DNA of 64,000 bases from Chiloscyllium plagiosum (taxonomy: Eukaryota): positions 8,937,420 through 9,001,419 of the forward strand of contig NC_057737.1 of the NCBI RefSeq assembly GCF_004010195.1, in the 5' to 3' direction. The position numbers were made by a program, and so were the translations under genes. Position 1 is the first letter of the stretch; the number at the start of each line of letters is the position of its first letter. Positions 23,860 through 63,407 of this stretch are shown here, one piece after another. Under the pieces are notes generated by a model, which searched no databases, was not told the origin of the DNA, and was given only the letters and a program-made list of their open reading frames with translations.

Positions 23860-24093
23860 TTTGTAGCTCAAGTCGAGGTTCAGGTTGTAAGTTTGTTCTC
23901 AGACGTTTCGTCACCACGCTCGCTAACATCATCAGTGAGCCTCTGGTGAAGCGCTGGTGTTCTGTCCCGCTTTCTAGTTATGAGTCTTGGTCTCATAAAG
24001 TGGGTGATCTCATTTCCTGTTCCTTTTTCTCAGAGGTTGGTAAATGGGGTTCCAAATCGACGTGGTTATTCGTGGAGTTCCGGTTTGAATGCC
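23860..24093 (-). mobile_element. Penelope-like element 3' fragment
   Basis: Minus strand encodes frameshifted HSNRNSTNNHVDLEP/IYQPLRK, resembling the C-terminus of Penelope GIY-YIG ORFs, followed by the hammerhead motif. Confidence 0.65.
23898..23939 (-). ncRNA. Minimal type I hammerhead ribozyme motif in a Penelope-like 3' end
   Basis: Minus strand: CUCA-CUGAUGA-U-GUUA..UGAC-GAAA-CG-UC-UGAG; intact core, stem I CUCA/UGAG, palindromic ACGU stem III. Confidence 0.7.
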
Positions 24094-24179
24094 TGTTTTT
24101 TTCCCCATTGCATTCAAATTCTCTCTGTGGTGGTTCAGGTCTTTTTTTTTAAAAAAGCTCAATCTTTGTTTTAATTAAG

Positions 24180-24293
24180 TTGCCCGGTATCGAGTCTCAA
24201 ATGAAGGAGGAGAATCAGAAAATCCTGACTCCGTTGGTGAGCTTGGACACGCCGGGAAAAGCAACTGTAGAGGTCGTGATCCTGGCAGACCCG
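24180..24293 (+). CDS. GLOD4: GLOD4 exon 7
   Basis: ttaattaag acceptor (AAG); [38 protein letters not shown]; 114 nt; GTGAGT donor. Confidence 0.95.
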
Positions 24294-24737
24294 GTGAGTG
24301 GCGGCTGACGGTTTCTACCACCTGGGGGGGGGGAGCCGGCATGTGATGGGGGTGGGGGCACCATGCAACGGGGGAGTGCTGCCATGTGACTGGGGTGAGG
24401 GTGCCATGTGATGGGGGTTTATCAGCAATGATACAAAGTGATTCTGGAAGATAACCTGCTCACCAGTTACGTGCACTAACTTATACAGAAGCAATGCATA
24501 GTCTCTGCACCCTGCCAGGCTTCCATTTGAGCAGATCTCCCTCAAAGGCATTGCAACATTTTCCTGTATTTACAAGGGAAAGATGGGTGGCTTAATGTTA
24601 ATGTTAATGAGTCAGTAGTGAATGGGCTGAAAGGCCTGTTCTGCACTGTGTGGTTTACTAGTTAGGAGATGGATTCAAATCCCATTGTGGTAGTTGGTGG
24701 AATTTAAACTCATTTCAGAAAAGTCATTAGTCTCAGT

Positions 24738-25237
24738 NNNNNNNNNNNNNNNNNNNNNNNNNNNNNNNNNNNNNNNNNNNNNNNNNNNNNNNNNNNNNNN
24801 NNNNNNNNNNNNNNNNNNNNNNNNNNNNNNNNNNNNNNNNNNNNNNNNNNNNNNNNNNNNNNNNNNNNNNNNNNNNNNNNNNNNNNNNNNNNNNNNNNNN
24901 NNNNNNNNNNNNNNNNNNNNNNNNNNNNNNNNNNNNNNNNNNNNNNNNNNNNNNNNNNNNNNNNNNNNNNNNNNNNNNNNNNNNNNNNNNNNNNNNNNNN
25001 NNNNNNNNNNNNNNNNNNNNNNNNNNNNNNNNNNNNNNNNNNNNNNNNNNNNNNNNNNNNNNNNNNNNNNNNNNNNNNNNNNNNNNNNNNNNNNNNNNNN
25101 NNNNNNNNNNNNNNNNNNNNNNNNNNNNNNNNNNNNNNNNNNNNNNNNNNNNNNNNNNNNNNNNNNNNNNNNNNNNNNNNNNNNNNNNNNNNNNNNNNNN
25201 NNNNNNNNNNNNNNNNNNNNNNNNNNNNNNNNNNNNN
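24738..25237. other. Assembly gap (500 N)
   Basis: Run of N. Confidence 1.
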
Positions 25238-27053
25238 AATCTCCAGCATCTGCAGTACCCACTTTCACCTGCCTGCAACAGTCAGAGACTCGCCAACTTT
25301 AAGGGCATTTAAATGATTGTTGGATAAACATATGGATGAAAATGGAATACTGTAGGTTAGATGAGCTTCAGATTGGTTCCACAGATCCAAGGGTCTGAAC
25401 TGCGCTGTAATGTTATGTTCTATAAGATGCCTGCTTTACGGCCAATGAACTAATTTTGACAAATAATCAGAGTTCTGATGTAGAGAAAGCAGCAACCAAT
25501 TTATGTACAGCAAGCTTTCACCAGCAGCAATGAGATCATGCGTCTGATAATCCATATCCCAGGAAAAAATAATGGCCAAGTTAAGGACGCTACAGAAGAC
25601 AATTTGTTGTTGAAATGAGGAACAGGAAGAGAGATGCTCTAGAGGTGTTTGTGCACTGATTATTGAAAGTGACAGGACTGCTTAACAAAGGGTTGATAAA
25701 AGGGATATGACACTGGGATTTATAAACAGAGGCATGGAATACATAAACCACAAACCTGATGTATAACTCCAGTTTACTCCCCAACTGGAGGCTGTGTCCC
25801 CTGGTCTGCCTTCAGTATGGGTACGAGTACAAGGAGTGAGGACTTGGGATGATGTGGTTAGAGAGGAAAAGCTGGCATTGTTTTCCTTAGAGCAGAGTTG
25901 GCAAAGAGGATACTGGATGGAGATTTTAACTCATGAAAGAGAAAATAAGAAGGGACCATTTCGAGTGGCTGACTGAACAGGTTTAAGGTAATTAACAAAA
26001 GCATCAGAGTAAGTAAGAGTCATAGAGATGTACAGCACGGAAATAGACCCTTCGGTCCAACCCGTCCATGCCAACCAGATATCCCAACCTGATACAGTCC
26101 TACTTGACTGCACCCGGCCCATATCTCTCTAAATCCTTCCTATTCATACACCCATCCAGATGTCTTTTAAATGTTGCAATTGTACCAGCCTCCACCACTC
26201 CTCTGAGAGCTCATTCCATACACGTACCACCCTCTGAGTGAAAAGGTCTCTGTTATATCTTTCCCTTCTCACCCTAAACCTATGCCCTCTAGTTCTATCT
26301 ATTTATCCTATCCATGCCCCTCATAACTTTGTAAACCTCTTTAAGGTCACCCCTCAGCCTCTTAACGTTCCAGGGAAAACAGCCCAAGCCTGTTCAACCT
26401 CTCCCTATCGCTCAAATCCTCCAATCCTGGCAACATCCCAAGACGGAGGACGGGAAAAATTTGTGGCTGTAAGAGCTGCTCCTTTTTGAGGTATTTTAGG
26501 TGTTGGCGGTGATTTCCTCCAATTCCAGGAGCAGCAATTACTGTTTTATATGCTGTTGCATTGTTTTGGAACTTTGGAGAAAAATAAAGTCAAAACAACA
26601 GCACTTTTAAAAGGGAGGGGAACAGACAAAGGACGCACATGGTGAGGTCAGTGCAGTAGAGAGAGAGAAAGAAAGAAACCCACATTGCCAACTCTCAGAG
26701 TTAGCAGTTACTGTCTTTGCTGTTGAATTCATGTATCTCTGGACATTGGAATGCATCTGGGGAAATTTGTAAAAAAATGTGTAAACAGGTTTTTTTTAAG
26801 CACTGAGTAGTTATGATTGAAGACTGGGATAGACATATTTTTAACCAGTGATGGGTTTGAAGGTTAAGGGAGAAAGGCAGGAAAGTGGAGTTGCGGGTTA
26901 TCAGATTAGCCACGATCTAGACCCCTCAGCCAGGGGCTCACATCTTCTCAAAGCCATCCTGTCAAGTAACTGAAGAATTTTACACCTTTCACCAGGAAAT
27001 CTAGGGTAATGGGGAAAGTCAGGACAGTGAAGTTGAGAGTTACCAGATCAGGA

Positions 27054-27236
27054 GGAGAAAGTGAGGACTGCAGGTGCTGGAGATCAGAGTCGAAGAGTGT
27101 GGTGCTGGAAAAGCGCAGCCGGTCAGGCAGCATGTGAGGAGCCCTTCCTAATGAAGGGGTTATGCCTAAAATATTGATTCTCCTGCTCCTTGGATGCTGC
27201 CTGACCTGCTGCGCTTTTCCCGCACCACACTGTTCA
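27054..27236. mobile_element. Palindromic Penelope-derived short element
   Basis: Same inverted arms, degenerate central hammerhead (CTAATGAAGGGG..CCTAAAA). Confidence 0.7.
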
Positions 27237-28062
27237 ATGGTTCTCAGATCACCCTTAATAACATTGAATGACGGAGCAGACTGAATGGCCTTCTGCTCCT
27301 ACGTCTGATGGCCTGATGGTTTTGAATACATTGCCTAGTGGTTACAAGCTCAATTGTCATCTTCAAAAAGGGGGGAGTTTGATCAATTGAAGGGATAAAG
27401 GGAACAAGTCAGGTTGTGCGACTAAATAAAAACCAAAAGAAAGGAAATCAGGTGCTGTAAATCAGAAACAAAAACAGAAGTTGCTGGAAAAGCTCAGCAG
27501 GTCTAGTAGCATCTGTGGAGAGGAATCAGTTAGCATTTTGGGTATGGTGACTCTTACTGAGAACTGATGGTAGCTGGGAAAATGTGCAGAACTTAGGGAT
27601 GGGAGGGGGAAGGACTAAACAATAGGGGGTGGGAATAGAGCCCAGAGAGAGAGAGAAGACCAGTTGGACAGATAAACGAGTGGATAACAATCTGTCTGGG
27701 AGGATGAATAGCTATTAATGGGGGCTGTTAGTGATTAACAATGGGTTGTGTGTAATAACAGACCATGTGATAACAAGGTCTGGTGCATGGGGTTGGGGTA
27801 AGGACATAGGAGAGCTCAGGTCGTAAAGTTGCGTTTATGTAGCTCCTTTTGCTATAGGTGGGTTATTGGACACAAAGGGGTTCAAGCTGTGTTGGGATGC
27901 CCTACCATGACGATGATCTTTGCCCGGTTTCCTGCTATGGGGGGGGAGCTGGCATTTTGTTAATGATCGGGAGTGAGCTGGGCTTTGTATTAGTCGATGG
28001 TCAGGGATGACTGGGGTTATACGCAGATTCTGAACCCTGTGACCTCTGCTTTGAACCATCAG

Positions 28063-28149
28063 GATGGCCATGAAATTTGCTTTGTGGGTGAAGAGGCTTT
28101 CCATGACCTTTCCAAAGTGGATGCCAACGCCAACAAGCTGCTAGAGGAT
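28063..28149 (+). CDS. GLOD4: GLOD4 exon 8
   Basis: catcag acceptor; [29 protein letters not shown]; 87 nt; GTGAGT donor. Confidence 0.96.
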
Positions 28150-28542
28150 GTGAGTACACTCAGTGCTAACCTTTACCCTCGAGACCCCAACATTAAGCCA
28201 CGTGGACACACAGAACCTCCGTCGAGAACTGTGTCCCCCCTTTCTTTCCCCTCTCTCAACCCCCAAGTTCACACTTTATTACTGCAGAGTAAAATCATAC
28301 AATCGTGCAGACTAGGCAAAGGCCAATCAGTCCCTCATTCCTGACCCTGATCTTTGAAACTGGTCCAACTCCTTTCTGTCTCACTGTAGCTTTGCCAAAT
28401 GTCTTTGTTTTTGTTTGAACATAATGAATTTGAGCAGGGGTAGCTAGCTCATTTTATCCTCGAGCGAGGTCTGGCAAGGAAGCCTGAGACAGAATGGAGC
28501 TAGAAATGGTCAAACGTTAATTTAGGGATACTTTGGATTTTT

Positions 28543-28858
28543 TAGATTAGATTCCCTACAGTGTGGAAACAGGCTGTTCAGCCCAACCAGTCCACACCGA
28601 CCCTCCGAAGAGTAACCCACCCAGACCCATTTCCCTCTGACTAATGCACCTAACACTATGGGTAATTTAGCATGGCCAATTCACCTAACCTGCACATCTT
28701 TGGACTGTGGAAGGAAACTGGAGCACCCGGAGGAAACCCACGCAGACACGGGGAGAATGTACAAACTCCACACAGACAGTTGCCAGAGGCTGGAATCGAA
28801 CCTGGGACCCTGGTGCTGTGAGGCAGCAGTGCTAACCACTGAGTCACCGTGCTGCCCC
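28543..28858 (-). mobile_element. HE1-like V-SINE, near full length
   Basis: Reverse complement with (AATCT)n tail. Confidence 0.9.
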
Positions 28859-29575
28859 AATCGGTTGACTGGGCATGTATGTGGGCTGCAATAATTCACG
28901 CTATTGAAAGTAGTGGTGTCTCAACTCATACAGCACAGAAACAGACCCTTCGGTCCATTTTGTCCATGTCAACCAGGTTTCCCAAACTAGACTAGTCCCA
29001 GGTGTGGATTTGTTAAATGGGTGGGTTGCTCTTCAGAGGGTCGGTGTGGACTTGTTAAACCCAGTGTCTGCGTGGGTTTCCTCCGGGTGGTCTGGTTTCC
29101 TCCCACAGTCCAAAAAAAAATGTGCAGGTTAGGTGAATTGGCCATACTAAATTGCCCATAGTATTAGGTGAAGGGGTAAATGTAGGGGAATGGATCTGGG
29201 TGGGTTGCTCTTCGGAGGATCAGTATGGACTTATTAAAAGACTAAACTAGTCCAATTTGTCTGTGTTAGGCCTATATCCCTCTAACCCTTTCCTATTTGT
29301 GTACTTATCCAGGTGCCTTTTAAATGTAGTAATTGTACCAGCCTCTATCACTTCCTCTGGCAGCTCATTCCATACACACACCACCCTCTGTGTGAAAAAG
29401 TTGTCCCTTTTAAATCTTTCCTCTCTCCCCTTCAACCTATGCCCTCTAGTTCTGAACTCCTTTACCCTAGGGAAAAGACCTTGACTATATTATGTCCCTG
29501 ATGGATTTTATAAACCTCTATAAGGTTACCCCTCAACCTCATACCCTCCAGTGAAAAAAGTTCCAGCCTCTCCTC

Positions 29576-29776
29576 AAACTCAAACTTTCCATTCCCAGCA
29601 ACATCCTTTGTAAAAGTATATGACTCGAATTTTTGTTTTAGAAAGTATTGGAGACCCGGGTTCAATTCCCGCCTCAGGCGACTGACTGTGTGGAGTTAAA
29701 CTCAAACTTTCCATTCCCAGCAACATCCTTTGTAAAAGTATATGACTCGAATTTTTGTTTTAGAAAGTATTGGAGA
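29576..29776. repeat. 79-bp direct repeat flanking a 43-bp SINE fragment
   Basis: 29576-29654 identical to 29698-29776. Confidence 0.9.
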
Positions 29777-30017
29777 AACTCAGCAGGTCGGACAGAATCT
29801 GTGGAGAGAGAAATAGTTTGATAAGATTAGATTACATTCCCTACGGTCTGGATACAGGCCCTTCGGCCAAACAAGTCCATACAGACCCTCCGAAGAGTAA
29901 CCCACCTGGACTCCCTGGGGTTGGGGAGTCCAGAACTAGAGGGCATAGGGTGAAAGAGGAAAAGGGACAACCTTTTTCTCAGAGGGCGGTGCGTGTATGG
30001 AATGAGTGACATTAATA

Positions 30018-30317
30018 CCGTAGCTCAGTGGTTAGCACTGCTGCCTCACAGCATCAGAGTCCCAGGTTCGATTCCAGCCTCAGATGACTGTCTGTGTGGA
30101 GTTTGCACGTTCTCCCCTTGTCTGTGTGGGTTTCCTCTGGGTGCTTCCACAGTACAAAGATGTGCAGTTTAAGTGAATTGGCCATGCTAAAATGCCCATA
30201 ACGTTAGGTGCATTAGTCAGAGGGAAAGGGTTCTGGATGCGTTTCTCTTTGGAGGGTCGGTGTGGACTGGTTGGGCCGAAGGGCCTGTTTCCGCACTGTA
30301 GGAAATCTAATCTAATC
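30018..30317 (+). mobile_element. HE1-like V-SINE just upstream of the last GLOD4 exon
   Basis: A/B boxes, V-domain, AATCTAATCT tail. Confidence 0.85.
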
Positions 30318-30416
30318 AATATGGGGGATGATGTCAGGGTGGTAATGTCTGACCCTTTAAAAGTCCATTTTCTGAATTGGCTGGAAGGAGTAACCGTGCT
30401 TGTCTTTCCCAAACAG

Positions 30417-34015: not shown

Positions 34016-34219
34016 AGCAAAAGTGAAGATTGCAGATGCTGGAGATTAGAGTCAAGATTAGTGTGGTGCTGGAAAAGCACAGCAGGTCAGGCAGCATCCG
34101 CAGAGTAGGAAAATTAGCTGATTCCTGATGAAGGGCTTATGCCCAAAACATCGATTTTCCTGCTCCTCGGATGCTGCCTGACCTGCTGTGCTTTTCCAGC
34201 GCCACCCTAATTTTGACTT
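34016..34219. mobile_element. Palindromic Penelope-derived short element
   Basis: Same inverted arms, central CTGATGAAGGGCTTATGCCCAAAAC; TSD TGAGCTGTACAYCAT at 34001 and 34220. Confidence 0.8.
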
Positions 34220-34873: not shown

Positions 34874-35057
34874 TAGAGACAAAAAAAAACCTGCAGATGC
34901 TGGATGAACACAGCAGGCCAGGCAGCATCAGGAGGTTGTGACGTCAACGTTTCAGGTGTTAACTGAAGAAGGGTTACACCTGAACCGTCAACCTCTCCCC
35001 CTCCTGATGCTGCCTGGCTTGCTGTGCTCTTTCAGCCTCTTGCCTGTCTATTTTGGA
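34874..35057. mobile_element. Second subfamily of palindromic Penelope-derived element
   Basis: Inverted arms around CTGAAGAAGGGTTACACCTGAACCGTC; related copy at about 100-256. Confidence 0.6.
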
Positions 35058-37072: not shown

Positions 37073-37790
37073 CCAGCGCACACCTCCTCCTGCAAGCACA
37101 GCAGAGCTCCCACAGTCTCCAACAGAGCCCTCATCCTGTAAATCCAGTAGAGCTCCCACAGTCTCCAGCAGAGCCCTCCTCCTGTAAAACCCAGCAGCGC
37201 TCATACAATGTCCAGCAGAACCCTCCTGTAAACTCAGCAGAGCGCTGTTTCCAGTAGAACTTCCTGTAAATCCATCAGAGTTCCTAAAGTCTCCAGCAGA
37301 GATCCCACTGTAAACCCAGCAAAGCTTATACAGTCTCCAGCAGAGCTCCCACAGTTTTGAGCAGAACCCTCTGTAAACCCAGCAGAGCTCCCACAGTTTT
37401 GAGCAGAACCTTCCGGTAAACCTGGCAGAGCTCCTGTAGCTGCCAGCAGAGTCCTTCTCCTTTAAATCCGGAAGAGCTCCGACAATCTCCAACAGAGTCC
37501 TCCTCGCAGACACCCAGCAGAGCTCCTACAGTCCCCATTAGTACCCTCTGTAAACCCAAAAGAGCTCCCAGTTTCCAGCAGAGCCCCCAGAAAAGCCAGC
37601 AAAGCTCCCACAGTTTCCAGCAGAGGTCTCCTCCACTAAACCCGGCACAGCCCCTTGAAAACCCAATATGCCTCCTACAGTCACTGGCAGCACACTCCTC
37701 CTGTTATCCCAACAGAGCTCCTACAGTCTTCAGCAGAACCCACCTCCAGTTAACCCAGCAGAGGTCCTGCAAACTCCTGCAGAATCCTTT
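37073..37790. repeat. Degenerate minisatellite, about 42-46 bp dimeric unit
   Basis: Recurring CCCAGCAGAGCTCCCACAGTCT + CCAGCAGAGCCCTCCTCCTGTAAA. Confidence 0.9.
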
Positions 37791-38931: not shown

Positions 38932-39134
38932 CGAAAGTGAGGACTGCAGATGCTGGAGATTAGAGTCAAGATGAGAGTGGTGCTGGAAAAGCACAGCTGG
39001 TCAGGCAGCATCCAAGGAGCAGGGAAATCTACGTTTTGGGCAAAAGCCCTTCATCAGGCACCTGCCCGAAATGTTGATTTTCCTGCTCCTCTGATGCTGC
39101 CTGACCTGCTGTGCTTTTCCAGCACCACTCTCAT
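38932..39134. mobile_element. Palindromic Penelope-derived short element with 16-bp TSD
   Basis: Inverted arms GTGGTGCTGGAAAAGCACAGC..GGCAGCATC / GATGCTGCC..GCTGTGCTTTTCCAGCACCAC; CTTCATTACAGCTTTG at 38916-38931 and 39135-39150. Confidence 0.8.
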
Positions 39135-40989
39135 CTTCATTACAGCTTTGGCTCATTCTTGGACAAAACAGCTGAATTCCAGAGGATTTGTGATTGGTGC
39201 TGAGCATCCCTGCTTCTGACCTTATGATGGAGGGAAAGTCATTGATGAAGTGGCTAAAGATGGTTTGGCTCAAACACTATCCTGAGGTACTAAGGGTTCT
39301 TGTGTTTCAATAGTAGTGTCTCTACCTCTAGACCAGGAGGCCTGGGTTTAAGTTCCACTTGCTTCAAATGATTCAAATGTGTATTTTTTTTGCCAAGTTA
39401 ACATTTGATTTAATGATCTATTTAAATGGAAATACATTGTGTCTAATTGTAACTTGTGAATTCTGTGCCAATAATTGCTGTCAATGTGCTGACAAACTGC
39501 TCACTGACACCTTTGGTGCTGTAAAGCACAAATGAATTGATAGGTTATTTATATCTAGGGATGGGCAATAAATGCAGAGATGTCTTGGAGCTGAAATGAC
39601 TGACTTCCACCAACTATAACCATATTATTTGTGCTGGGTATGACTCCAACCAGAACAGAGTGTCCCCCCCCCCCCCCCCCCCCCCGACTTCAGTTTGGCT
39701 AGGGTTCCATGTTGCCACACTCAGTCCAGTACCCTGATGTACTTATGTAATGAATGATTTGTCTGGTTACCACACAAAACAATATTTTTCACTGTATCTC
39801 AGTGCACATGACATTAATAATAAGTCAATTCAAAGGGCAGTCATTTTCACCTTGCCTCTGGAGCTCAGCTCATTGAGATAAGGAGCCATGGGCAAAAATT
39901 CTTTTAATTCCATGAAAGGAATTAAAAGAATTACATATTCAGATGGAAAAGCCATTTGGACAGGGATGATATTCCTGGCTGTTGGGCAGATCTTGCCCTT
40001 GAACCTAGCCCTGGCCCGTTCACAGATTAGACCATAAGACATAGAGCAGAAGTTAGGCCATTCAGCCCATCAAGTCTACTCCACCAATCAGTCATGACTG
40101 ATAAGTTTCTCATCCCCATTCTCCTGCTTTCTTCCTGTTACCCTTCATCCCATTGACAATCAAAACATATCTGTCTTAGTCTTAAACATACATAATGACC
40201 TGGCAGCGAATTCCATAGATTCACCACTCTCTGTCTTAAGAAGTTTCTTCTTATCTCTGTTCTAAAAGGACTTCCTTTTACTCTGAGGTCATAGTCTCTC
40301 CTACCAATGGAAACATTTTCCCACTCTGTCCAGGCCATTCAGTATTCTAACTCTGGCTATTGGACCCTCCACCTTCCACCAACACTTTTCTGGGCTCTGA
40401 TATTGGACTTGAAATATCAACTGTTTCTCTTTCCCAGGTGTTGCAAGGTCTGCTGAGTTTCTCCAGCACTTTCTGTATTTCTGTATTCATATTATGTATA
40501 ACACAGATACTTATATTACATACAGAGTCATAGAGATGTACAGCACAGAAACAGATCCTTTGGTCCAACTCACCCATGCCGACCAGATATCCTAAATTAA
40601 TCTAATCCCGTTTCCCAGCACTTGGTCCATATCCCTCTAAACCCTTCCTATTCATATACCCATAAAGATGCCTTTTAAATGTTGCAATTGTACCAGCCTC
40701 CACCACTTCCTCTGGCAGCTCATTCCACACACAACCACCCTCTGTGTGAAAAAGTTTTATATCTTTTATATCTTTCCCCTCTCACCTTGAACCTGTGCCC
40801 TCCAGTTCTGGACTCCCCCACCCCAGGGAAAAGACTTTGCCTATTTACACTATCCATGCCCCTCATGATTTTATAAACTACATTAAATATATACCACTAG
40901 TCTGTGTTTACACCTATAGTATGAGATGAGATGAGTATACATGAGATGTGAGTGTAGTACAGTGCCCTGTGGGGTCCCCTGGAGCAGGC

Positions 40990-41314: not shown

Positions 41315-42077
41315 NNNNNNNNNNNNNNNNNNNNNNNNNNNNNNNNNNNNNNNNNNNNNNNNNNNNNNNNNNNNNNNNNNNNNNNNNNNNNNNNNNNNNN
41401 NNNNNNNNNNNNNNNNNNNNNNNNNNNNNNNNNNNNNNNNNNNNNNNNNNNNNNNNNNNNNNNNNNNNNNNNNNNNNNNNNNNNNNNNNNNNNNNNNNNN
41501 NNNNNNNNNNNNNNNNNNNNNNNNNNNNNNNNNNNNNNNNNNNNNNNNNNNNNNNNNNNNNNNNNNNNNNNNNNNNNNNNNNNNNNNNNNNNNNNNNNNN
41601 NNNNNNNNNNNNNNNNNNNNNNNNNNNNNNNNNNNNNNNNNNNNNNNNNNNNNNNNNNNNNNNNNNNNNNNNNNNNNNNNNNNNNNNNNNNNNNNNNNNN
41701 NNNNNNNNNNNNNNNNNNNNNNNNNNNNNNNNNNNNNNNNNNNNNNNNNNNNNNNNNNNNNNNNNNNNNNNNNNNNNNNNNNNNNNNNNNNNNNNNNNNN
41801 NNNNNNNNNNNNNNNNNNNNNNNNNNNNNNNNNNNNNNNNNNNNNNNNNNNNNNNNNNNNNNNNNNNNNNNNNNNNNNNNNNNNNNNNNNNNNNNNNNNN
41901 NNNNNNNNNNNNNNNNNNNNNNNNNNNNNNNNNNNNNNNNNNNNNNNNNNNNNNNNNNNNNNNNNNNNNNNNNNNNNNNNNNNNNNNNNNNNNNNNNNNN
42001 NNNNNNNNNNNNNNNNNNNNNNNNNNNNNNNNNNNNNNNNNNNNNNNNNNNNNNNNNNNNNNNNNNNNNNNNNNNNN
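41315..42077. other. Assembly gap (763 N) in MRPS23 intron 1
   Basis: Run of N flanked by C-run-rich sequence. Confidence 1.
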
Positions 42078-42209: not shown

Positions 42210-42386
42210 GGTGCGGGACTTGTTGCGAGCTGGTGTCATGAAGGAGTCAGAGAAACCTTGCTGGTACGATGTTTGCGCTGCTTTCCCTCCAAAGTATGAG
42301 CCAGTCTACGCGCAACCGAAGGAGAGATTTGGTAAAGTGCAGGACCCGGTTCAGGAGATTTTCTACCAGGAGGACACGATTCGAGC
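42210..42386 (+). CDS. MRPS23: MRPS23 exon 2
   Basis: ctgtag acceptor; [59 protein letters not shown]; 177 nt; GTACGT donor. Confidence 0.95.
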
Positions 42387-46441: not shown

Positions 46442-47255
46442 GTAAGGAAGATCCTTATTTGTATTCCTAGCTTTCTCCTTGGCCCAGACCCAGCAGTTAA
46501 TTATTGTCATTTATTAATTGGATGTGGGCATTTATTACCCATCCCTAATTGCCCTTGGTGACTTGCTGCAATCCATACCATATAGGGGGATGCACTATGC
46601 TGTAAGGATGACATAATGGAACAGTAATATATTTCCGAGTCAGGCAGCATCTGAGGAGCAGGAGAATCGACGTTTCGAGCATAAGTCCTTTGTCAGGAGT
46701 GAGGCTTGTGGGCCGGGGGGGGCTGAGAGATAAATGGGAGGGGCTACCTTCCCCCCCCAGCCCCACCCCCCCCATTTATCTCTCAGCCCACCCCTAGATT
46801 ACTCTAGTCAAGGCTGTTTCTGATCCCCTGAATCTTTAAAAATAAAACTAGTTACCAAATTAACTGAGTCCAGCTACATAAATAACTCAATAAGTTCAGT
46901 GCCCCAACCATTTGCCCATTGGGTAGTTTAAAATAAATTTGAGGATGTAGTGGGGTGGGGGTTGCTTTTCATTTGCAGGTATAATCGGATAGTGTTAACT
47001 GGAAGACCTATTTTGTACATCTGACTTCTAGTGCTGCTGATTGTAGACTGTGCAGGCATGGGATTATTACATTGCATTCTGTGTCAGGATTGTAATGATT
47101 GTGAGTAGTTATAGTTACACCTTTTTGTTCTGTTATTACACACTCCTGCAGAAGGTGGGACTTGACCCCAGGCCTAGCACTGTGCTGCAAGAGCCGGCTC
47201 CTAGCACACCTGTACTGAAGCCCTTACTGTTTTTCCGATATTTTCCCCCACTTAA

Positions 47256-49105: not shown

Positions 49106-49484
49106 AATAAGTGTGCCAAGGTATGTGTAGTTACGCTTCTTAAAGGAACATATACATGGTATTGCAACACAAGAATTAAGAGTGGGACTAATGGATTACT
49201 CTTCAAAAGAGCCATCACAGAGCTGATGGGCTGAATGGTTGTCTCCTGTGCTGCCCTGGTCTTTGTTACTGCACTTGTCTCCTGGACCAGCTCCCAAGTC
49301 AGCTGACCACGTTCATCCTCTCTTTGTCACATTTGTAAAGCCCTAGTTTATTAACATTTTCAGCTTTCTGGTAATTTATAAACTATCTTCACCCACAACT
49401 GAAATATCAAACTTGGTTTCCAAAAAGGTGTTCAGCCATTTCCAATCTAGGTAAATTCTGCCTGAACCCGGGATCAGCTGCACA

Positions 49485-49520
49485 AATCCTGATGAAGGGC
49501 TTATGCCTGAAACGTCGATT
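49485..49520 (+). ncRNA. Minimal hammerhead ribozyme motif, sense in MRPS23 intron 3
   Basis: AAUC-CUGAUGA-A-GGGC-UUAU-GCCU-GAAA-CG-UC-GAUU. Confidence 0.6.
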
Positions 49521-49612
49521 CTCCTGCTCCTCGGATGCTGCCTGACCGGCTGTGCTTTTCCAGCCCCACACTCTCGACTCTGATCTCCAGCATCTGCAGT
49601 CTTCACTTTCTC
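49486..49612 (+). mobile_element. Single-arm Penelope-derived short element starting at the hammerhead
   Basis: Runs from CCTGATGAAGGGC to CTTCACTTTCTC; TSD TCAGCTGYACAA at 49474-49485 and 49613-49624. Confidence 0.75.
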
Positions 49613-49714
49613 TCAGCTGTACAAGTGTCCCAGGGTATTTTTTCCCTTCTGTTTTTGTTGGATCCCTGCCTGAGGTCGGGAGCTCCACACCCTGTCTGAC
49701 CTTCTCTCTCCTAG

Positions 49715-49838
49715 GTTTGTGGAAAAGTACCAGGAGCTCGAGGCACAAGGTGAAGTGGACGAAGAGAAGTTATTTGAGGCGACCAGCCGGGCACTGCTCA
49801 TGGACGGAGTTGTGTTGCGAAGGAGAGGCCGAGCCGGA
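49715..49838 (+). CDS. MRPS23: MRPS23 exon 4
   Basis: ctctctcctag acceptor; [41 protein letters not shown]; 124 nt; GTGAGT donor. Confidence 0.95.
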
Positions 49839-53800: not shown

Positions 53801-53852
53801 NNNNNNNNNNNNNNNNNNNNNNNNNNNNNNNNNNNNNNNNNNNNNNNNNNNN
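53801..53852. other. Assembly gap (52 N) inside a SINE
   Basis: Run of N. Confidence 1.
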
Positions 53853-55184
53853 ATGCTAAATTGCCCTAGTGTTAGGTGAAGGGGTAAATGTAGGAGTATG
53901 GGTCTGGGTGGTATACGCTTTGGCGGGTTGGTGTGGACTTGTTGGGCCGAAGGGCCTGTTTCCACACTGTAAGTAATCTAATCTAATTTTTAAGGTGAGG
54001 GGAGAGAGATTTAAAAAAGACATGAGGGATACATTTTTTACACAGTGGTTCACGTGAAATGAACTTCCTAAAGCAGTGGTAGGTGTGGCACCGTCACGCA
54101 ACGTTTAAGAGACACTTAGAAAAGTACATGAATAGGAAATGTTTGGAGGGATATGGACCACGAGCAGGCAGGTGGGCCAAGTTTAGTTTGGGATTAAGTT
54201 CAGCACTGGCTTGACCGAAGGGTCTGTTTCCGTGCTGTATGACTCTCTAACAAGATTAGCTCAGACCAGGTTAGCAGCACTGCCGCTGAACATACCTGAC
54301 CATAAGATCTAAGGAACCTGTTAAAAATCCTCTTGTGCAGAGCAGCATTTAGTGCCCGTCCCTAGCTGCCCTTGAGAAGGTGATGAGGAGCTGCCTTCCT
54401 GAATTTAGTAAGAAGTGAACTTCTTTCGGTGAATTTGCTGCAACTTATTTTTTGCTTAAAACTCTTATTCCCTTCAGACTGGCTGCACTAACTAATTAAA
54501 TAATTACTGAAGTGGAATTAATTCACGGAGTAATATTTTCTGGCCTTATTTTTTTTTAATATAAAGGAATCTAATTATCTCCATGTGACCTTGCTCTGTA
54601 GAGTAGAAAAAGTCCCACAGACCTGGGCAGGCCAGAGTTAGCTTGATTATGATTAGTAATGGGAGGGCTGCTGTCCAAGGGGAAGAGTGTGACTGTGACT
54701 ATTGGCTGTAAAATCATAAGGTTTCTCTGCCTCAGAGGCTAGGGATACTCAGCTGGTGAGAAAATATACAAAGTAGGGGGAGATTTTTTTTTTGGGAAAG
54801 TCAAGGTAATTGGGCACTTGCGTTCGGACGCCAGTTGTATGTTGTTTGGTGGAGCAGGTCCAAGTGCTGTGTTTCACGTGGATAGACACGTTAGCTGCAG
54901 TTGTTGGCCATTTGGGCCCTTAAACCTGCTTTGCTGAGTGATCTGATGTTGGCCTCAGCACCCCTTCCCTGCCTACCCCCAGTAAAGCTTTCAACCCTTT
55001 GTTCATCAGGAATTTAGGTTCGAAAGAAAAATAATTGTACTCAAAACATCTGTTTCTCTGTCCACAGATGCTGCCAGACCGGCAGCACTTTCTGTTTTTA
55101 TATCTGTCTATCTCCACCTTTAATGGCCCTCCCCCCATCACTCTCCTAGTAAGAGAATCCCACAGATTTGCAGCCATAAGGAAA

Positions 55185-55785: not shown

Positions 55786-58700
55786 TTAAGGCCCTACCCC
55801 TCTGCCGAGAGAAAGCACTTCTCTCATCTCCATCTTCTCTGGATGATTCCTTAATTTTAAATTGTGTCCCCTTCTTCTGGGAATTCTGATGCAGAGGGAT
55901 CTGTGTTCTGTTACATGAATCACATAAGTTAGTATGCAGTTGCAGCAGGTCAGTAAGAATGCTATCCTTCGTTATGAGAGGATTGGACTGTAAAACTAAT
56001 GATGTTAGAGAGGGCACTGATGAGTTCACATTTTGAGTATTCTGTTTTGGTCTTGTTCATTTAATGAAAGTTGTAAATACATTAGAGGTGGTTCAGAGCA
56101 TCATGACTAGGATAATACCTGGAATATGTGGGTTGCCTCATGAGGAAAGATTGGACGGACAGCGCTTCCCTCCACCAGAAAGTTGAGAGGAGTGAAAGGT
56201 GAAGTGTAAAGTCCTGAGTGGCCTTGACAAGTAGCAGGGATGTTTACTTTTGTGGGGTGAATCCAGGAGTAGGGGGTCACTTAAAATTAGGGGTTGCCCT
56301 TTTAAGAAAGATACAGGGAGAAATTTTATTCCTGAGGGTGTTGCAACATTGGAACACTGTGCCTCAGAGCGGTGGAGATGAAATCACTGAATATTTTTAA
56401 AGTAATAGGAATTGAGGGTTACTGGGGCTTGAAGGGAATGTGGAATTCAGAACAGCGACAGATCACCTGTGATCATACTGAATTAATGAGCAGGCTTGAG
56501 CAGCCAAATTGTCGACTTCTCCTAGTTTAGAGTCGCAGAGCTGTATAGCTCAGAACTTCGGTGCAACTCCTCCACGCCGAGCAGATATACTACATTAATC
56601 TAGTCCCACTTGCCAGCACCTGGCCCATGTCCCTCCAAACCCTTCCTATTCATCCACCCATCCAGATGCCTTTTAAATGTTGCAATTGTACCAGCCTCCA
56701 CCACTTCCTCTGGCAGCTCATTCCATACACGTGGAAAAAGTTGCCCCTAAGGTCTCTCTTTTATATCTTCCCCCCCCTCACCCTAAATTTATGGCCTCTG
56801 CTTCTGGACTCCCCCATCCCAGGGAAAATACCTTGATTATTCACCCTATCCATGCCCCTCGTGATTTTATAAATCTCTATAAGGTCACCCCTCAGATGCC
56901 CCAGGGAAAACAGCCCCAGCCTTTTCAGCCTCTCCCTATAGCTCAAACCCTCCAACCCTGGCAGCATCCTTGTAAATCTTTTCTGCACCCTCTCGAGTTT
57001 CACAATCTCTTCCTACAGCAGGGAGATCGGAAATGCACGTTGGTAACTTTTTATTCTATCGATCTGCACAGTGAACTCTGTCGCCCACCTTTTATTCCGC
57101 AGTGGCACAGTTCTGCATTCATAGTGCACGGTTCACAGAATTGACCAAAGCCTCAGCGTGTTTAATCACCCTGTCAGCCTACTGTCTGCAACCCTGTCCT
57201 GCTCCAGTCCCCCTCATTCTCTTCTCAACTCTCCATGTCCCATTGTGCAGGTGGTTGATTCATCTCCAGATTTATTCTCCCTTTTCAGGAAAATGCTTGA
57301 CTTCCAGTATCCCCAGTGGTCTGCCTGAGCTCAGGAATTTTTCACACTGGGGGAATGGTCAGTGCAGACACAGATGCTGCCACTTTCCGACAGCTCATTG
57401 ATTCTTGCAGCACCTTTCACCTGCCTGATCTATTTATACCGTACCCTTCTTTGCTTCAGTTACAAAAAGCCAGAGGGATAAGTTTTTATATTTCATTCCG
57501 GTCCCAAAAAAAAAACAAATGACCCAGTAAATCACACTGCATTTGTGGAAGTGCATTTTTACTTAAATTTCCTCTGAGACTTTTTCATTTGGGTAGAGGT
57601 CAGGCATGAGAGGTTTTAACATTTCAAGCATAGAGATTGAAGAGTAGTTTTAATGAAGTGACACAAAGGTTTAATCTTGAGGAAATCTCCTGTGAAAATC
57701 AATGTTCAGAGATGCAGATCTCCTTTGCTGTTTCTTTTTGTGATGCTGTTTTCATGTTGTCCACTAGGTAGCAGTAACGCATAACTTTCTCTGGCCAAGT
57801 TGATTTAATGCATGAAGCCAAATTACACTGTGTCAATATCCATTCTTTTTATCCCAGCATTGAAAGAGCCAAGGTACAGTCACGCTCAGATTGAAATGTT
57901 TGAGACTGCTGTCTAGTTATTAAGGGAACACAGACAAATTGTCTCACTTTTAGTGTGACCCGCTAAGTAGAGATGGTGTTCATTGTCACCCATCGCTGCT
58001 CCAATTCCTTCCCATCTCCTGAAGGCACAGCTTAAATCAACTCACCGTTACCCTGCTGCTCTCTTTGGGTCTTCAGGGGTGTGCATGTGGCTGGATGAGG
58101 CAGAGTTTATTGCCCATGCCTAATTGCCCTCGAGAAGGTGAAGGGGAGCTGCCATCTTGAACTGCTGCAGTCCCTTTGCTGTAGGGGTCCCACAGTGTAG
58201 TCAGGGAGGATTTTCACCCAGCAAGGTTGAAGGAATATTGATATATTTCCAAGTCAGGTGTGAAGCTTGGAGGGGAGCTTGCAGCTAGTGGTGTTCCCAT
58301 GCACCTGCTGTCCTTGTCCTTCTAGTTGGAAATGGTCAAGTGTTTGGAAGGTGTTGTCAGAGGAGTGTTGGTGAATTTCTGCAGTGCATCTTGATGCTAC
58401 TGAGCGTTGGCATCTCATCCACCAACAATCAAACCAGCTGTATTATTCTGGATGGTCATACAGTCATAGAGATGTTCAGCATGGAAACAGACCCTTCGGT
58501 CCAACCTGTCCATGCCGACTAGATATCCCAACCCAATCTAGTCCCACCCGCCAGCACTGGCCCATATCCCTCCAAACCCTTCCTATTCATATACCCATCC
58601 AAATGCCTCTTAAATGTTGCAATTGTACCAGCCTCCGCCACATCCTCCAGCACCTCATTCCATACACGCACCACCCTCTAAGTGAAAAGGTTGCCCCTTA

Positions 58701-58929
58701 GGTCTCTCTTATATCTTAATCCTCTCACCCTAAACCTATGCCCTCTAGTTCTGGACTCCCCCACCCCAGGGAAAAGACTTTGTGCTGAGATTCACTCATT
58801 CAGACAAGAGGGAGTATTCCATCACTCATATATTGTAGGTAGTGGGCAGACTTTGGAGAGATGCGAGTGAGTTCCTCATCACAGGGTCCCAGCTGCTGAT
58901 TTGGCCATGTACCCAAAGTATTTTATCTA

Positions 58930-59130
58930 GGAGAAAGTGAGGACTGCAGATGCTGGAGACTGGAGTCGTGAGTGTGGTGCTGGAAAAGCGCAGCAGGTCA
59001 GGCAGCATCCGAGGAGCAGGAAACTCAACATTTCAGGCACAAGCTGAAGGGCTGGAGCCCAAAACGTCAATTCTTCTGCTCCTCGGATGCTGCCTGACCT
59101 GATGTGCTTTTCCAGCACCACACTCTCGAC
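58930..59130. mobile_element. Palindromic Penelope-derived short element
   Basis: GGAGAAAGTGAGGACTGCAGATGCTGGAG left arm and inverted right arm. Confidence 0.75.
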
Positions 59131-59910
59131 AATATTTGATCTGTGTGGTCCAGTTGAGTTTCTGGTCAATGGTAACCCTAAGGATGTTGGTAATGGAGTA
59201 TTCAGCGATTCCAATGCATTGAATGTCCTTGTTGGAGATGATCATTGCCTGGCATGTTGGTCTGTCTACCTGCCCCTTATTCACCCAAACCTGGATATTG
59301 TTAAGGGTTTTTTCCCCTATATTTGGACGTGGACTTTTGTTGCCTCTGAGGAGTCACAAACTGCTCTGAACATCGAGCAATCATCGAACATCCCCACTTC
59401 TGACCTTAAGATGGAGTAAGAGTGATTGGTGAAGCAGCTGAAGATGTTTGGTTTTTGTGGTGCAGTGGTCCTGTCCCTTTCTCTGAGCCAGGAGGCTCAG
59501 GTTCAAGTCACACCTGCATGGAACTGCATAGTTAGGAAAATATATACAACTCACCCTGATTTGTTCTTGTGGTGCAGTGGTATTGTCACTATCTCTAAGC
59601 CAGGAGGTCTGGGTTTAAGTCTCGCCTGCTGCAGAGATGACTGACAGCTAGCAACCACAGCCATCTTCCTGTGTGCCAGGTATGACTCCAAGCAGTGGAG
59701 AGCTTCCCCCCGGTTCCCATTGACTGTGGTTTTGCCCGGGCTCACTGTTTTACCACACAAAGTCAAACGCTGCCTTGATGTCAAGGGCTATCACTCTCAC
59801 TTTGCCCCGCATTCAGCTCTTTTGTCCATGAGGTCAGGAGCTGAGTGGCCCTGTTTGAATCCAAACTGAGTGTCAGTGAGCAGACTAATGCTGAGTGGCA
59901 GTGATAGACT
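59131..59910 (-). mobile_element. Old CR1/L2-like LINE RT fragment
   Basis: Degenerate LESYLAHRKMAVV and ILRVTIDQKLNW; related pieces at about 1950-2700, 38780-39720 and 58080-58400. Confidence 0.55.
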
Positions 59911-60235
59911 GTTTGTTTGTTATCTGAGTATGTGTAAGCTGCACATGATTTTATATCATCAGTATCTGACTGAAGAGTTGAACACAAGACCAGCCTGGAT
60001 GACTGCACAGGAGAGAGTTCATCTCATCTCGTCCTGGATCATTAATGAAACCCCAGACCCTATCTGTCTTCCTGTTTTAGGTGTCAATGCTGTGTTTGAG
60101 CATATCAAGACTGGGTGTCCAGGCGTGATAGGTTGGATTGGGGAGTAGTGGAGGAGACAAGCTTTTGGAAGGTAACTCTTTGGTTTTGTTGAGTGAGAGT
60201 TGTTTGCACTGATGACCATTCTTATTGTGTTGCCA

Positions 60236-60446
60236 TAGTCTTACCAGACCATAGGGGCTGCTCTCTCATTAGAGAGAAGCGACTGGTGGTGATTTAACCT
60301 GAGGGCCACCAGACCTCAGGTGAGGGAAGAGGTTGAGAAGGAGAGTCCTTCATAATAACCTCAAACCGATGATGGGAATTGTGAACCCGTGCTGTTGGCA
60401 TCACACTGCTCTGCAAACCAGCAATCCAGCCAACTGAGCGAAACCG
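60236..60446 (-). mobile_element. Third tRNA-headed SINE family
   Basis: Minus strand GCTCAGTTGG..GGGTTC head; relatives at about 33795-33917 and 35360-35560. Confidence 0.55.
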
Positions 60447-63370
60447 CTCCCCACTGACCAGCAGAACCTAGGCACCTTGTATCTGCTGTTGCCGTTCCCA
60501 GCTTCCCTGCAGCAGCCCTTCCTTGTCAATGGAAAGATGGTGATGCAGTGGGAATGTCACTGGATCTGAACTCGTGGCTAATGCTTTCGGACCCTGGTTT
60601 CAAATCGCACTAATGAAAGCTGGCAGAATTTAAATTCAGTTGAAGTTATTCTCAGTGACAGTGACTGTGATAATGAAGGTGCCTTCCTATTATCTAGTTT
60701 AGAAACTTTGCTGTCGGTGTGATTCCAGACCCACAATAAAATGAGTCTGCTCCACCATTCAAACATGGCTGTGCTGCTCAAACCCATTCTCTTGCCTTCT
60801 CCCTGGAGCCCTTGATCCCCTTCCTAATTGAGAACCCATCTATCTCTGTCTTAAAAACAGCCAATGACTTGGCCTCCACAGCCTTCCGTGGCAATGAGTT
60901 CCACCCTCTGGCTGAAGAAATTCCCCCTCCTCTCAGTTCTAAAGTGTTGACCCTTCACTCTGAGGCTGTGCCCTCAGGTCCCGGTCTCTCCTACCTGTGG
61001 AAACATTTCCACATCCACTTTATCCAGGCATCTCTGTATTCTGATCACCTGCGCAACCCTCCCCAGCCCTTCTAAACTCAATTGAGTACAGACCCAACGT
61101 CCTCAACCACTCTTCATATGGTAAGCAACAGTGTCCATCTCCCCAAAAGAAAACTCAAGTAAAACAACTTTAATCCCACAGGAGCTTCAGTGATGTGTCT
61201 GCTCCTGGGTCTCGGAATTGTACGTTCCAGCTCCCACACAGACCGTCCCTGTGTGAGTGCTGTCAATGGCGGGTGGGACCTGCGAGATCCACTTCAAGCT
61301 TTCGAGCCTGCTGCTTTCCACTCATGAGAACCCGCCAGTGAAATGGAAAGCCACCTCACTGGGAAGGGAGTGACAATTCTGTACATTGTGTCTATGCCTT
61401 GTCCACTTACAACCAGCAGCTCTTCGGCCTGACAGAGTGCCGTGAGAATCTGACAACACCTGGAATAATGTAACTCTTTGTTTGACTTTCTGACACCCTG
61501 CATTGATACCTCTTGCATTTGTAAACTATTATCACTGCTGTCAAATCAACTACATCCAATAGCTGGACCTCTTTCAGCCAGCTTCCCCCAGTAATACTGT
61601 CAGTACTTATTGTCTGCTTTAAGACATCTGACATGATAATTCTCCAGTCTGCACCGAGTTAATAGATTGGAGCCAAGATACCAAGAAGTTGTCATTTTTT
61701 GTTCTTTATTCTTTCATGAGATGCAGTAAGGTCAGACTCTGTTGCTCATCCCTGACTGCTCTTGCACTGGGTGACTGAATGAGGGACATTTCAGAGGGTG
61801 GTTAAGAGTCAGCCACATTGCTGTGGGTCTGGAGTCACACATGGGCCAAACTGGGTAAGGGCAGCAAAGTTAATACCTGAGTGAACCAGTTGACCTTTGA
61901 TTGACAGTCTCTGTGATCACGATCACTGAGAATAGCTGTCAATTCCATATTTATTGATTGAATATGAATTCCACCAGCTAATGAAGTGGGGTTTGAACCC
62001 ATGTCCTCAGAATACTGGATTGGGATGATTAGTGCAGTGTAATTATCACAACCCCTCTCCCCCCCCCCCCCCCCCCTCAGGATTACTTGCAGGGAAGGTG
62101 TTGGTCTCGTGGTATTATCACTGGACTATTAGTCCAGACACTCTGATAATGTGATGGGACCTAGGTTTGAATCCCGCCATGGCAATTGGTGGAATTTGGA
62201 TTCAATTGGGGATGGGAAAGAAATCTGAAATTAAAAGTCTCACGATGACCATGAATCCATTGTTGGAAAAACCCATCTGGTTCACTAATGTCCTTTGGGA
62301 AAGGAAACTGCCATCCTAACCTGGTCTGGTCTACATGTGACTCCAGTTCCACAGCAATGTGGTTGGATGAATCTGCCCTCTGGGTATTTAATGGGTACTA
62401 AATGCTGGCCTTAACCAGTGATGCCCATATCTCTTGAATGAGTAACATCAAAAGGTGTTGGGGAGCAACGATTGTGAAAATTGCATCGTGATTATAACTC
62501 CAAGATAATCCTGTGAAGCTGTCTGTGTATCAGGGGAGTGTGTGTGTGTGTTTGGCGGGTGGTGTTTGTGTGAACATCTGTGGAGTTTATAAGAGTTGGT
62601 GTGTTCGGAGGATTGACTGCGGGGGGTGTGTGTGTGTGAGAGAGATTTGGCTTGACTGTAAAGTCCTGCATAGTAGAACCAGCATCACGTGCCCCAAGTT
62701 TCTGGTCCTAGGTGACGAGGCACCTTTTAATTGATCATGCTAAAGCTGTATAAAACACACACACCTGCACTCTGCTGCAGGATTCTGTTCAAGTCTGGGT
62801 GTCCTGCTTTGGAGAGGGTGCAAAAAGCCATCAACATGGATAAGAGGCCTATAGAAATGTGCACAGACTTGAGAAGATGTTCTAGACTTCACTACAGTGA
62901 GAACAGAGAGGTGTTTAAAATCGGGTAGAGTTCAGACACAAGTTGATCACTGTAAGGACAATATCAAAGATCCTGGGGAGCAAAGAACTAGTGACTTTGT
63001 GATGAAAAAATCTTCTTTACATAAAAAATGAAATATTTCAGACTTCCAGCATCAGCAGTAAAGTTGGAATAAATGGAAACCGCCAGCAGGTCGGGCATAT
63101 CGTTGGAGAGAGAAGTGGAGTTAACATCCACAGATATGGAATGTTAGCCCATGGTTTCTGAGGAACAAGGAGTTTTTCCCCAGCATTTTCTGTTTCTTAC
63201 ACAGTGATTAGGATTTGGTAAACACTGCCTGATGTGGTGGCATATACAGACCTTCAGAAAGGAATAGAGAATTAAAAAAAAACTGAACTGGAGCGGTCAG
63301 TGTTGGACTGGGGTGGTTAAAGTCAGAAATCACATGACACCAGGTTATACTTCAACACATTTATTTGGAA

Positions 63371-63407
63371 TCACAAGCTTTCAGAGCGCTGCTCCTTCAT
63401 CAAGTGA
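63371..63407 (-). ncRNA. Degenerate hammerhead motif of a third Penelope-like family
   Basis: Minus strand: UCAC-UUGAUGA-A-GGAGC-AGC-GCUCU-GAAA-GC-UU-GUGA; stem I UCAC/GUGA, palindromic AGCU; C3 mutated to U. Confidence 0.5.

Follow-up and report, generated by a model that had tools for sequence, protein, structure and literature searches.

Minimal hammerhead ribozymes (min-HHR) of metazoan Penelope-like elements (PLEs) were described by Cervera and de la Pena in 2014 (PMC4209133), and a stem I of 2 bp occurs in the published alignment. A tail of 30-40 nt has been described for PLEs (PMC8557442, PMC3846280, PMC11167929). In PAc, the anole Poseidon element, cleavage is protein-assisted and is dispensable for insertion in vitro (PMC11167929). 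Penelope-like elements have been reported to be expanded in the introns of the whale shark (10.1101/443036).

The DNA analysed here, referred to as the window, is a stretch of 64,000 nucleotides from Chiloscyllium plagiosum, in which an earlier reading of the sequence alone had pointed to several families of minimal hammerheads. These motifs are minimal type I hammerhead sequences that probably derive from the 3' pseudo-LTRs (pLTRs) of PLEs, contained in short, 5'-truncated insertions of at least three unrelated lineages, whose decay appears to be neutral.

Hammerhead motifs in the window

Three motifs, assigned to families A, B and C, were located as follows.

49485-49520, plus strand: type I minimal hammerhead of subfamily A; predicted cut between 49516 and 49517; outer stem I bases in the target duplication
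23898-23939, minus strand: type I minimal hammerhead of family B; full core; predicted cut between 23902 and 23901
63371-63407, minus strand: type I minimal hammerhead of family C; U3 and G10.1·U11.1; predicted cut between 63375 and 63374

In B, stem I is CUCA/UGAG, the core is CUGAUGA, and an unpaired U is followed by stem II GUUA/UGAC and GAAA-CG-UC. The window copy of A combines stem I AAUC/GAUU and stem II GGGC/GCCU with GAAA-CG-UC, while C has stem I UCAC/GUGA, stem II GGAGC/GCUCU and GAAA-GC-UU. The positions and stems given by the sequence-only reading agree with the letters one by one. Its CUGANGA core is found in A and B but not in C, which reads UUGAUGA (U3, core at 63403). The letters of stem I in A are also correct, but its outer half is target-site DNA; the stem of the family is AUUC/GAUU (2 bp, U·U, A-U), since 49485 lies inside the left target duplication and in other A copies found in reads ...CAU precedes 49487. 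Stem I is 4 bp long in B and C, and in A only when target DNA is used. The palindromic 15.2-16.2, or minimal stem III, is present in all three motifs (CG in A and B, GC in C), and the 10.1-11.1 pair is G-C in B and G·U in the window copies of A and C.

A descriptor of minimal type I hammerheads modelled on the published consensus (stem I and stem II of at least 3 bp, both strands) gave three matches in the whole window, exactly A, B and C, and none in each of 200 dinucleotide shuffles of the window. When stem I was relaxed to at least 2 bp, a fourth match appeared at 14620 (plus strand), again with none in 200 shuffles. All three motifs agree with the consensus given in PMC4209133 (supplement file 2), C by means of the U3 found there in some families. 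The full core CUGANGA...GAAA...UH is present in 3 of the 26 stretches examined (B, A at 49487 and A at 14618), palindrome arms and split halves each being counted apart, and the hammerhead fold is the predicted minimum for none of the copies.

At the gathering score, Rfam produced no match in the window. With Hammerhead_1 (RF00163, cut-off 34 bits), A, B and C were not reported even at E<=10, and the sole Rfam hammerhead match by E-value, at 59964-60000 (26.2 bits), was rejected, being without GAAA and without a second copy. Loose motif matches at 61327, 55008, 54751, 46509, 42239, 21086 and 8459 fail the descriptor, and the Rfam miRNA matches in the window are merely the palindromes described below. 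The suggestion that the stems of A, B and C covary had to be abandoned as circular, because the motifs were picked for their pairing and have no other homology between them.

The A/D/E lineage

Subfamilies A, D and E, grouped by homology of their tails, comprise 21 insertions (12 A, 2 D and 7 E) in 62,685 non-N bases, a density of about one insertion per 3 kb. The lineage includes the following features, the palindromes having no strand.

49487-49612, plus strand: subfamily A unit of 126 nt, made up of hammerhead, 3' region and tail; a single copy, truncated at its 5' end; both borders (49487, 49612) marked by depth and loose ends
49474-49485, plus strand: left target-site duplication of this copy; partner at 49613-49624; 12 bp, 1 mismatch; null p 0.009
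14618-14659, plus strand: extra subfamily A hammerhead; full core, 2-bp stem I, damaged stem II
46635-46800, minus strand: subfamily A copy retaining upstream sequence; G8 mutated; short inverted duplication of the upstream sequence
4128-4332: subfamily A palindrome; cores of both arms broken
17235-17411: subfamily A palindrome; one arm with a 32-nt tail; target duplication of 13 bp
27051-27244: subfamily A palindrome; one-arm tail; target duplication doubtful (p 0.09)
34016-34219: subfamily A palindrome; one arm with a 33-nt tail; target duplication of 15 bp
38932-39134: subfamily A palindrome; one arm with a 39-nt tail; target duplication of 16 bp without mismatch
58929-59132: subfamily A palindrome; one arm with a 34-nt tail
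34877-35055: subfamily D head-to-head palindrome; target duplication of 13 bp; the hammerhead at 34963 is broken by GAAC
2873-3592, minus strand: subfamily E copy; hammerhead split by a younger repeat of about 577 bp at 2999-3575
27421-27990, minus strand: longest subfamily E candidate; decayed hammerhead at about 27560-27525; 5' edge not fixed; within a GLOD4 intron

The split copy on the minus strand (3592-3576 and 2998-2972), already suspected, proved to be real, and the inserted repeat is abundant and has a TGACCC duplication. The variant reported at 34963 (plus strand) is present, but it reads GAAC for GAAA and stem I is absent. Both copies have their tail in common with A at 49485 and belong to the same lineage. 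The hammerhead at 14618-14659 had been overlooked.

There are seven head-to-head palindromes of the A/D lineage in the window, in five of which one arm is 32-39 nt longer at the 3' end. Target duplications of A/D reached p<0.01 in 5 of 8 cases and p<0.05 in 2 more, the clearer ones being 12-16 bp long, with p-values that are optimistic because the edges were picked by eye. The combination of an inverted copy and a one-arm tail was not seen for B or C; a target duplication of more than 7 bp was found in none of six insertions (B, C and four E copies), and C has no structural PLE sign. The possibility that long arms begin at the cut site is not supported, as one of seven does so (49518) and arm starts and joints are spread over 49488-49576. 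Compensatory changes traced by hand within A/D/E involve three pairs (2.1-1.1, 2.3-1.3 and 10.4-11.4), which are too few independent events.

Family B and the search for a parent element

Family B lies within a GLOD4 intron, antisense to GLOD4, and is accompanied by two further features.

23825-23929, minus strand: stop-free frame that begins with an ATG; the G of this ATG is the first base of stem II of B, and the predicted cut lies 28 nt downstream
23940-24093, minus strand: upstream remainder of the B insertion; end frameshifted

The stop-free frame is likely the start of an ORF carried by the pLTR, in a layout that would correspond to the one described in PMC11167929. Among 1.84 billion proteins there were no matches to the ATG frame, nor any in Pfam; its in-frame continuation gave one candidate with no score, and a protein search with the upstream B peptide gave no candidates. 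The frameshifted end of 23940-24093 presumably resembles a Poseidon-type ORF end. B itself is predicted to misfold (-2.0 kcal/mol for the target fold versus a minimum of -8.9 kcal/mol), and family C has one copy in the window.

With the short peptides that these heavily truncated copies provide, no RT or GIY-YIG frame was tied to any family. For the tail frame of A, 3 of 201 candidates matched, all of them unrelated shark gene models with a piece of the repeat, and pattern scans of viral, metagenome and genome contig collections returned 0 loci.

Subfamily A in public reads

The A lineage is very abundant in public reads: 129,332 contigs of one read set (X1) and 8,644 of another (X3) were placed on the A unit, with opposite-strand joints. 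Head-to-tail joints from 49612 to 49487, located elsewhere in the genome, were found in 15 X1 contigs and 2 X3 contigs, the letters between joints not being known. The consensus of A from reads agrees with the published motif. Position 49508 is C in 72% (X1) and 85% (X3) of depth; this commonest base restores G10.1-C11.1, and the G·U closing stem II in the window copy is CpG decay. Such decay dominates among copies, and non-CpG changes in the ribozyme, among the variants listed, fall at free core position 7 (43-44% A), in loop II and at position 1.3. Stem I of the dominant A subfamily is weak, with a U·U mismatch. Among the public records that contain the stretch, none was registered as RNA. 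In the RNA run X21, of polyA single-cell type and covered to about 2%, there was no pile-up of RNA ends, 3 of 4,032 placed reads were at least 99% alike, and the flanks were without depth.

Origin of the motifs and alternative explanations

Penelope origin, proposed earlier for all the motifs, is well supported for the lineage with 49485, 34963 and the split copy, which shows inverted copies, one-arm tails and target duplications. For B, such an origin is suggested by an architecture that fits the published consensus and by an ATG placed where stem II begins, a feature shared with the anole Poseidon; for C, it is the motif that may point in this direction. The proposed minimum of three ribozyme-bearing Penelope lineages stands as three unrelated sequence lineages (A/D/E, B and C), but not as lineages with a linked RT or GIY-YIG frame. 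The hidden layer said to lie beyond the ORF track did not emerge, the motifs being dispersed and mostly broken relics of a kind known since 2014 and no working layer.

From published PLE biology, the endonuclease of the element would nick the target, and the reverse transcriptase would start at one of two nearby sites on the pLTR RNA, one that includes the tail and one that leaves it out, and would stop early; a second, inverted copy would often finish the insertion. In the parent element, cleavage by the hammerhead after NUH would require either that two copies pair via the palindromic stem III (ACGU or AGCU) or that the element's protein assists. The lone copies found here, which are separated by kilobases and in most cases carry mutations, are unlikely to cut.

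In subfamily E, the predicted cut falls within a branch-point-like word (UUAAC or CUAAC, two copies), downstream of which a pyrimidine tract and CAG are found in 6 of 7 copies; an AUG frame (MLPDLL), common to subfamily A, follows the CAG. Subfamily A has CGG where E has CAG, and its stem I is weakened. It is conceivable, if quite improbable, that the predicted hammerhead of E is placed on the 3' splice site of a pLTR intron, so that cleavage and splicing, being mutually exclusive, would act as a switch that decides whether a tandem transcript serves as message or as template. If this were true, A would have lost the switch and then amplified massively without it.

The head-to-tail joints described above, together with the starts of many copies within a few bases of 49487, could also mean that subfamily A is a self-standing non-autonomous unit of about 126 nt, retrozyme-like (non-LTR) or SINE-like, which uses the PLE enzyme in trans and comes from tandem arrays whose dimeric hammerhead frees monomers. 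Tandem type I hammerhead repeats of one chondrichthyan, which a 2026 preprint derives from PLE pLTRs (10.64898/2026.07.22.740005), agree with this. However, the unit may be longer, given the letters missing between the joints, and some of the clipping at 49487 is an artefact caused by the edge of the window copy; upstream sequence is retained at 46698 and 14618, the window has no tandem array, and ribozyme-cut monomers should begin at 49517, not 49487. Such a unit is therefore considered unlikely. It overlaps with the explanation by truncated PLE insertions and is not exclusive of it.

Mammals are known to have domesticated hammerheads in introns (PMC6155905), and the full core of B, A at 49487 and A at 14618 would suit one or more copies (B in the GLOD4 intron, or A at 49487) acting as active ribozymes on host transcripts. 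This is very improbable, as B is antisense to GLOD4 and predicted to misfold, A at 49487 has CpG decay at 11.1, no dimer partner lies nearby, and the X21 RNA gave just the three closely matching reads mentioned above, with flanks without depth. That the motifs are chance look-alikes in ordinary repeats would be in line with the lack of an Rfam match at the gathering score and with the flanking DNA forming part of stem I in A, but the shuffled windows gave no matches, the family consensus at 11.1 makes a better hammerhead than the window copy does, and from one subfamily to another, the subfamilies being grouped by their tails, three pairs differ in both of their bases, which leaves chance hardly credible. 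Decaying PLE insertions remain the preferred explanation, and judging by its letters the window itself appears to offer no working ribozyme or host function.

Comparison with known systems

The motifs share with the min-HHR of PMC4209133 the type I topology, the CUGANGA-H core, an unpaired base preceding stem II, the G10.1-C11.1 pair (for A, in its consensus), the palindromic 15.2-16.2 and a short stem I, as well as the occurrence of dispersed single copies from truncated elements and of opposite-strand pairs. In supplement file 2 of that study, the lamprey entry is close to B in layout and the turtle entry shares the GC palindrome with C; no shark entry was found in this file. The dominant A subfamily differs by the U·U in stem I, and no ORF is linked here.

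As in endonuclease-bearing PLEs (PMC3846280, PMC8557442), there is an inverted head-to-head copy, a 30-40 nt tail on one arm only and a short target duplication, whereas the whole insertion here is often just two ends of 80-130 nt (177-205 bp). The clearer target duplications of 12-16 bp compare with 8-10 bp in passages on rotifers in these sources. PAc (PMC11167929) resembles B in that the start codon of the ORF coincides with the beginning of stem II, with the cut 26 nt downstream (28 nt in B) and the element end roughly 90-120 nt beyond the ATG in both; PAc was tested in vitro, while B is a single decayed fragment to which no ORF is linked. Animal non-LTR retrozymes likewise have a type I hammerhead in a short non-coding repeat and dispersed monomers, but they are defined by tandem units (PMC7229834, 10.64898/2026.07.22.740005), of which the window has none, palindromic insertions being dominant.

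Sequences of this kind have already been described and are thus ordinary, and the present shark families are added to a class known since 2014. Because its stem I is weakened, the very abundant A subfamily could be used as a natural experiment on whether spread needs the ribozyme.

Window setting and detection of hammerhead motifs

The window is repeat-rich vertebrate DNA containing exons of two genes assigned with Pfam, and three assembly gaps. The frame at 537-989 (-), for which Pfam gave no match, is presumably the start of MRM3.

Exons and assembly gaps in the window
18167-18300 (+), GLOD4 exon
28060-28150 (+), GLOD4 exon
42210-42380 (+), MRPS23 exon
24738-25237, assembly gap
41315-42077, assembly gap
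53801-53852, assembly gap

Two very abundant repeat families occur window-wide (e.g. 2999-3575, 13423-13722, 14743-15240 and 40524-40922) and exceed the hammerhead-bearing repeats in bases; we take them to be a tRNA-derived SINE and CR1-like LINE 3' ends. At 37083-37784 there is a degenerate tandem repeat (21/42/46 nt) whose minus strand holds a frame of 151 codons without a stop.

A descriptor patterned on the published consensus of minimal type I hammerhead ribozymes was applied to both strands and matched exactly the three sites listed below, with no match in 200 dinucleotide shuffles.

Hammerhead motifs in the window
49485-49520 (+), hammerhead A
23939-23898 (-), hammerhead B
63407-63371 (-), hammerhead C

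Easing the stem I cut-off to 2 bp added one match, at 14620, and still produced none in 200 dinucleotide shuffles; a stricter script permitting no unpaired base before stem II returned two matches and none in 40 shuffles. Rfam at its gathering score had no match in the window; a single-copy CUGAAGA stretch at 59964-60000 (+), scoring 26.2 bits as Hammerhead_1 against a cut-off of 34 and without GAAA, was taken as chance.

The sequence-only reading had named the same three motifs, which were found as described; it recognised their kind rightly but misread some details. The CUGANGA core it assigned to C reads UUGAUGA. Its variant at 34963 is a copy of the motif, but with GAAC instead of GAAA and without stem I. 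The letters of the AAUC/GAUU stem I proposed for A are in place, but the first A (49485) belongs to the target duplication on the left (49474-49485, whose partner is 49613-49624), and since CAU precedes 49487 in other copies, stem I of the family combines two pairs with a U·U and an A-U. The proposed split copy, at 3592-3576 plus 2998-2972 (-), is real and is interrupted by a younger repeat of ~577 bp, presumably a shark tRNA-derived SINE.

Relationships among the hammerheads

The region downstream of A is common to the 34963 copy (subfamily D) and the split copy (subfamily E), and B and C each occur once in the window; the hammerheads therefore fall into three lineages, A/D/E, B and C, that are unrelated to one another. 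The claim of at least three distinct lineages holds to this extent, but the 34963 and split copies belong to the lineage of A. The covarying stems had been claimed from a comparison of A with B and C, which is circular. When copies within A/D/E were grouped by tail homology and pairs counted by hand, three pairs changed on both sides: 2.1-1.1 (C-G in A, U-A in E), 2.3-1.3 (U·U or U-A in A, G-C in E) and 10.4-11.4 (C-G in A, U-A in D). These changes are suggestive of covariation, in a number too thin for a test.

In B, stem II begins with the G of an ATG that lies 28 nt upstream of the predicted cut, and the frame from this ATG is stop-free up to the insertion end. The sequence upstream of B may resemble the end of a Poseidon ORF; protein searches and Pfam gave no result for this sequence or the ATG frame. 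The assignment of C is putative, made from the motif by itself.

Anatomy of A/D/E insertions

In the 62,685 non-N bases of the window 21 A/D/E insertions were found (12 A, 2 D and 7 E), seven of which are seen directly as head-to-head palindromes of 177-205 bp. The 3' end of one arm is 32-39 nt longer in five palindromes; of the others, one has lost its anchor and one has no net arm difference. Among eight A/D insertions tested, target duplications were supported at p<0.01 in five (12-16 bp), at p<0.05 in two and above this in one, these p-values being optimistic because insertion edges were set by eye. No target duplication longer than 7 bp was found for B, C and four E copies.

At 46714-46796, sequence from upstream of subfamily A is duplicated over a short stretch in inverted orientation and forms a strong hairpin, which accounts for several Rfam miRNA matches below threshold. 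An A tail piece (25239-25266) abuts the assembly gap at 24738-25237, and an A piece at 1-80 is cut by the window start.

Subfamily A in public reads

Mapping at 82% likeness to 49330-49720 recruited 129,332 and 8,644 contigs from two public contig sets (X1 and X3) and 4,032 reads from a public RNA run (X21), nearly all on the 126-nt unit 49487-49612; a further run (X22) contributed none. The counts, which are not copy numbers, show that the subfamily A repeat is very abundant. C at 49508, in 72% (X1) and 85% (X3) of depth, restores the G10.1-C11.1 pair. Among the variants listed, A stands at the free core position 7 in 43-44%, C>T or G>A affects the three CpGs, including G12, in 7-11%, and the other ribozyme changes fall in loop II and at position 1.3. 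This pattern, as far as the listed variants go, fits constraint in parent elements followed by neutral decay after insertion.

Opposite-strand joints are present among the mapped contigs, and head-to-tail joints occur in 15 X1 and 2 X3 contigs. The RNA reads lie on both strands, at least 99% alike in only 3 of 4,032, and the flanks are without depth. No pile-up of RNA ends on A was listed in X21, a weak test since this is a polyA single-cell run of which ~2% was read.

Integrity, folding and proposed mechanism

Decay is directly visible in the window, where both core boxes are intact in 3 of 26 stretches (arms and split halves counted separately): B and the A copies at 49487 and 14618. A hammerhead-like fold was never the predicted minimum (-6.5 vs -9.5 kcal/mol for A, -2.0 vs -8.9 for B and -8.7 vs -9.8 for C), and dimer folds of A and C lay 11-12 kcal/mol above the cofold minimum; these energies are indicative only, as ViennaRNA does not model the non-canonical pairs of the core. 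The insertions would have been made by the endonuclease and reverse transcriptase of a Penelope-like element (PLE), with early truncation. Parent elements would cleave only with the aid of a protein or as dimers joined by the palindromic stem III, and the lone window copies would be inactive.

Splice-site-like stretches and a shared reading frame

In six of the seven E copies the hammerhead is directly followed by a pyrimidine tract and CAG, resembling a 3' splice site.

Stretches of the seven subfamily E copies (pyrimidine tract and CAG in six)
19140-19200 (-), subfamily E stretch
27480-27540 (-), subfamily E stretch
2935-2990 (-), subfamily E stretch
40400-40450 (+), subfamily E stretch
55030-55085 (+), subfamily E stretch
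29775-29830 (-), subfamily E stretch
19935-19990 (+), subfamily E stretch

An AUG comes directly after in four of the seven, and its frame is common to subfamily A. The peptide from A, the commonest hammerhead-bearing repeat, matches gene-model pieces of two carpet sharks, which points to a shark as host. In all three gene models matched the repeat piece starts at the shared methionine or immediately upstream of it. These models are unrelated, and their A tail frame is either an exonised repeat or an annotation artefact. Introns in PLE pseudo-LTRs are known (PMC4209133), and a switch between hammerhead cleavage and splicing in E is conceivable, if improbable.

Comparison with known elements

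Minimal type I hammerheads are on record from fish, coelacanth, frog and reptiles, where most of them lie scattered as single copies (PMC4209133), and a search of its supplement file 2 gave no shark term. In two further sources, tandem type I hammerhead repeats are reported in one chondrichthyan (10.64898/2026.07.22.740005, whose supplements may list shark families) and PLEs are reported as expanded in whale shark (10.1101/443036). No description of these particular shark families was found in the literature covered, a scope with most subscription papers, Repbase and Dfam outside it. The A/D/E, B and C families are new members of an already known kind of motif.

The palindromes, one-arm tails and short duplications of the A/D insertions reproduce the layout reported for PLEs, in which a truncated copy lies inverted, one arm bears a tail of 30-40 nt and the duplication is short (PMC3846280 and PMC8557442). 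The tail has been attributed to two internal reverse-transcription starts and called unique to PLEs (PMC11167929). According to the same source, the ORF of anole Poseidon starts at stem II, as does the frame in B, with 26 nt to the cut vs a predicted 28 nt in B.
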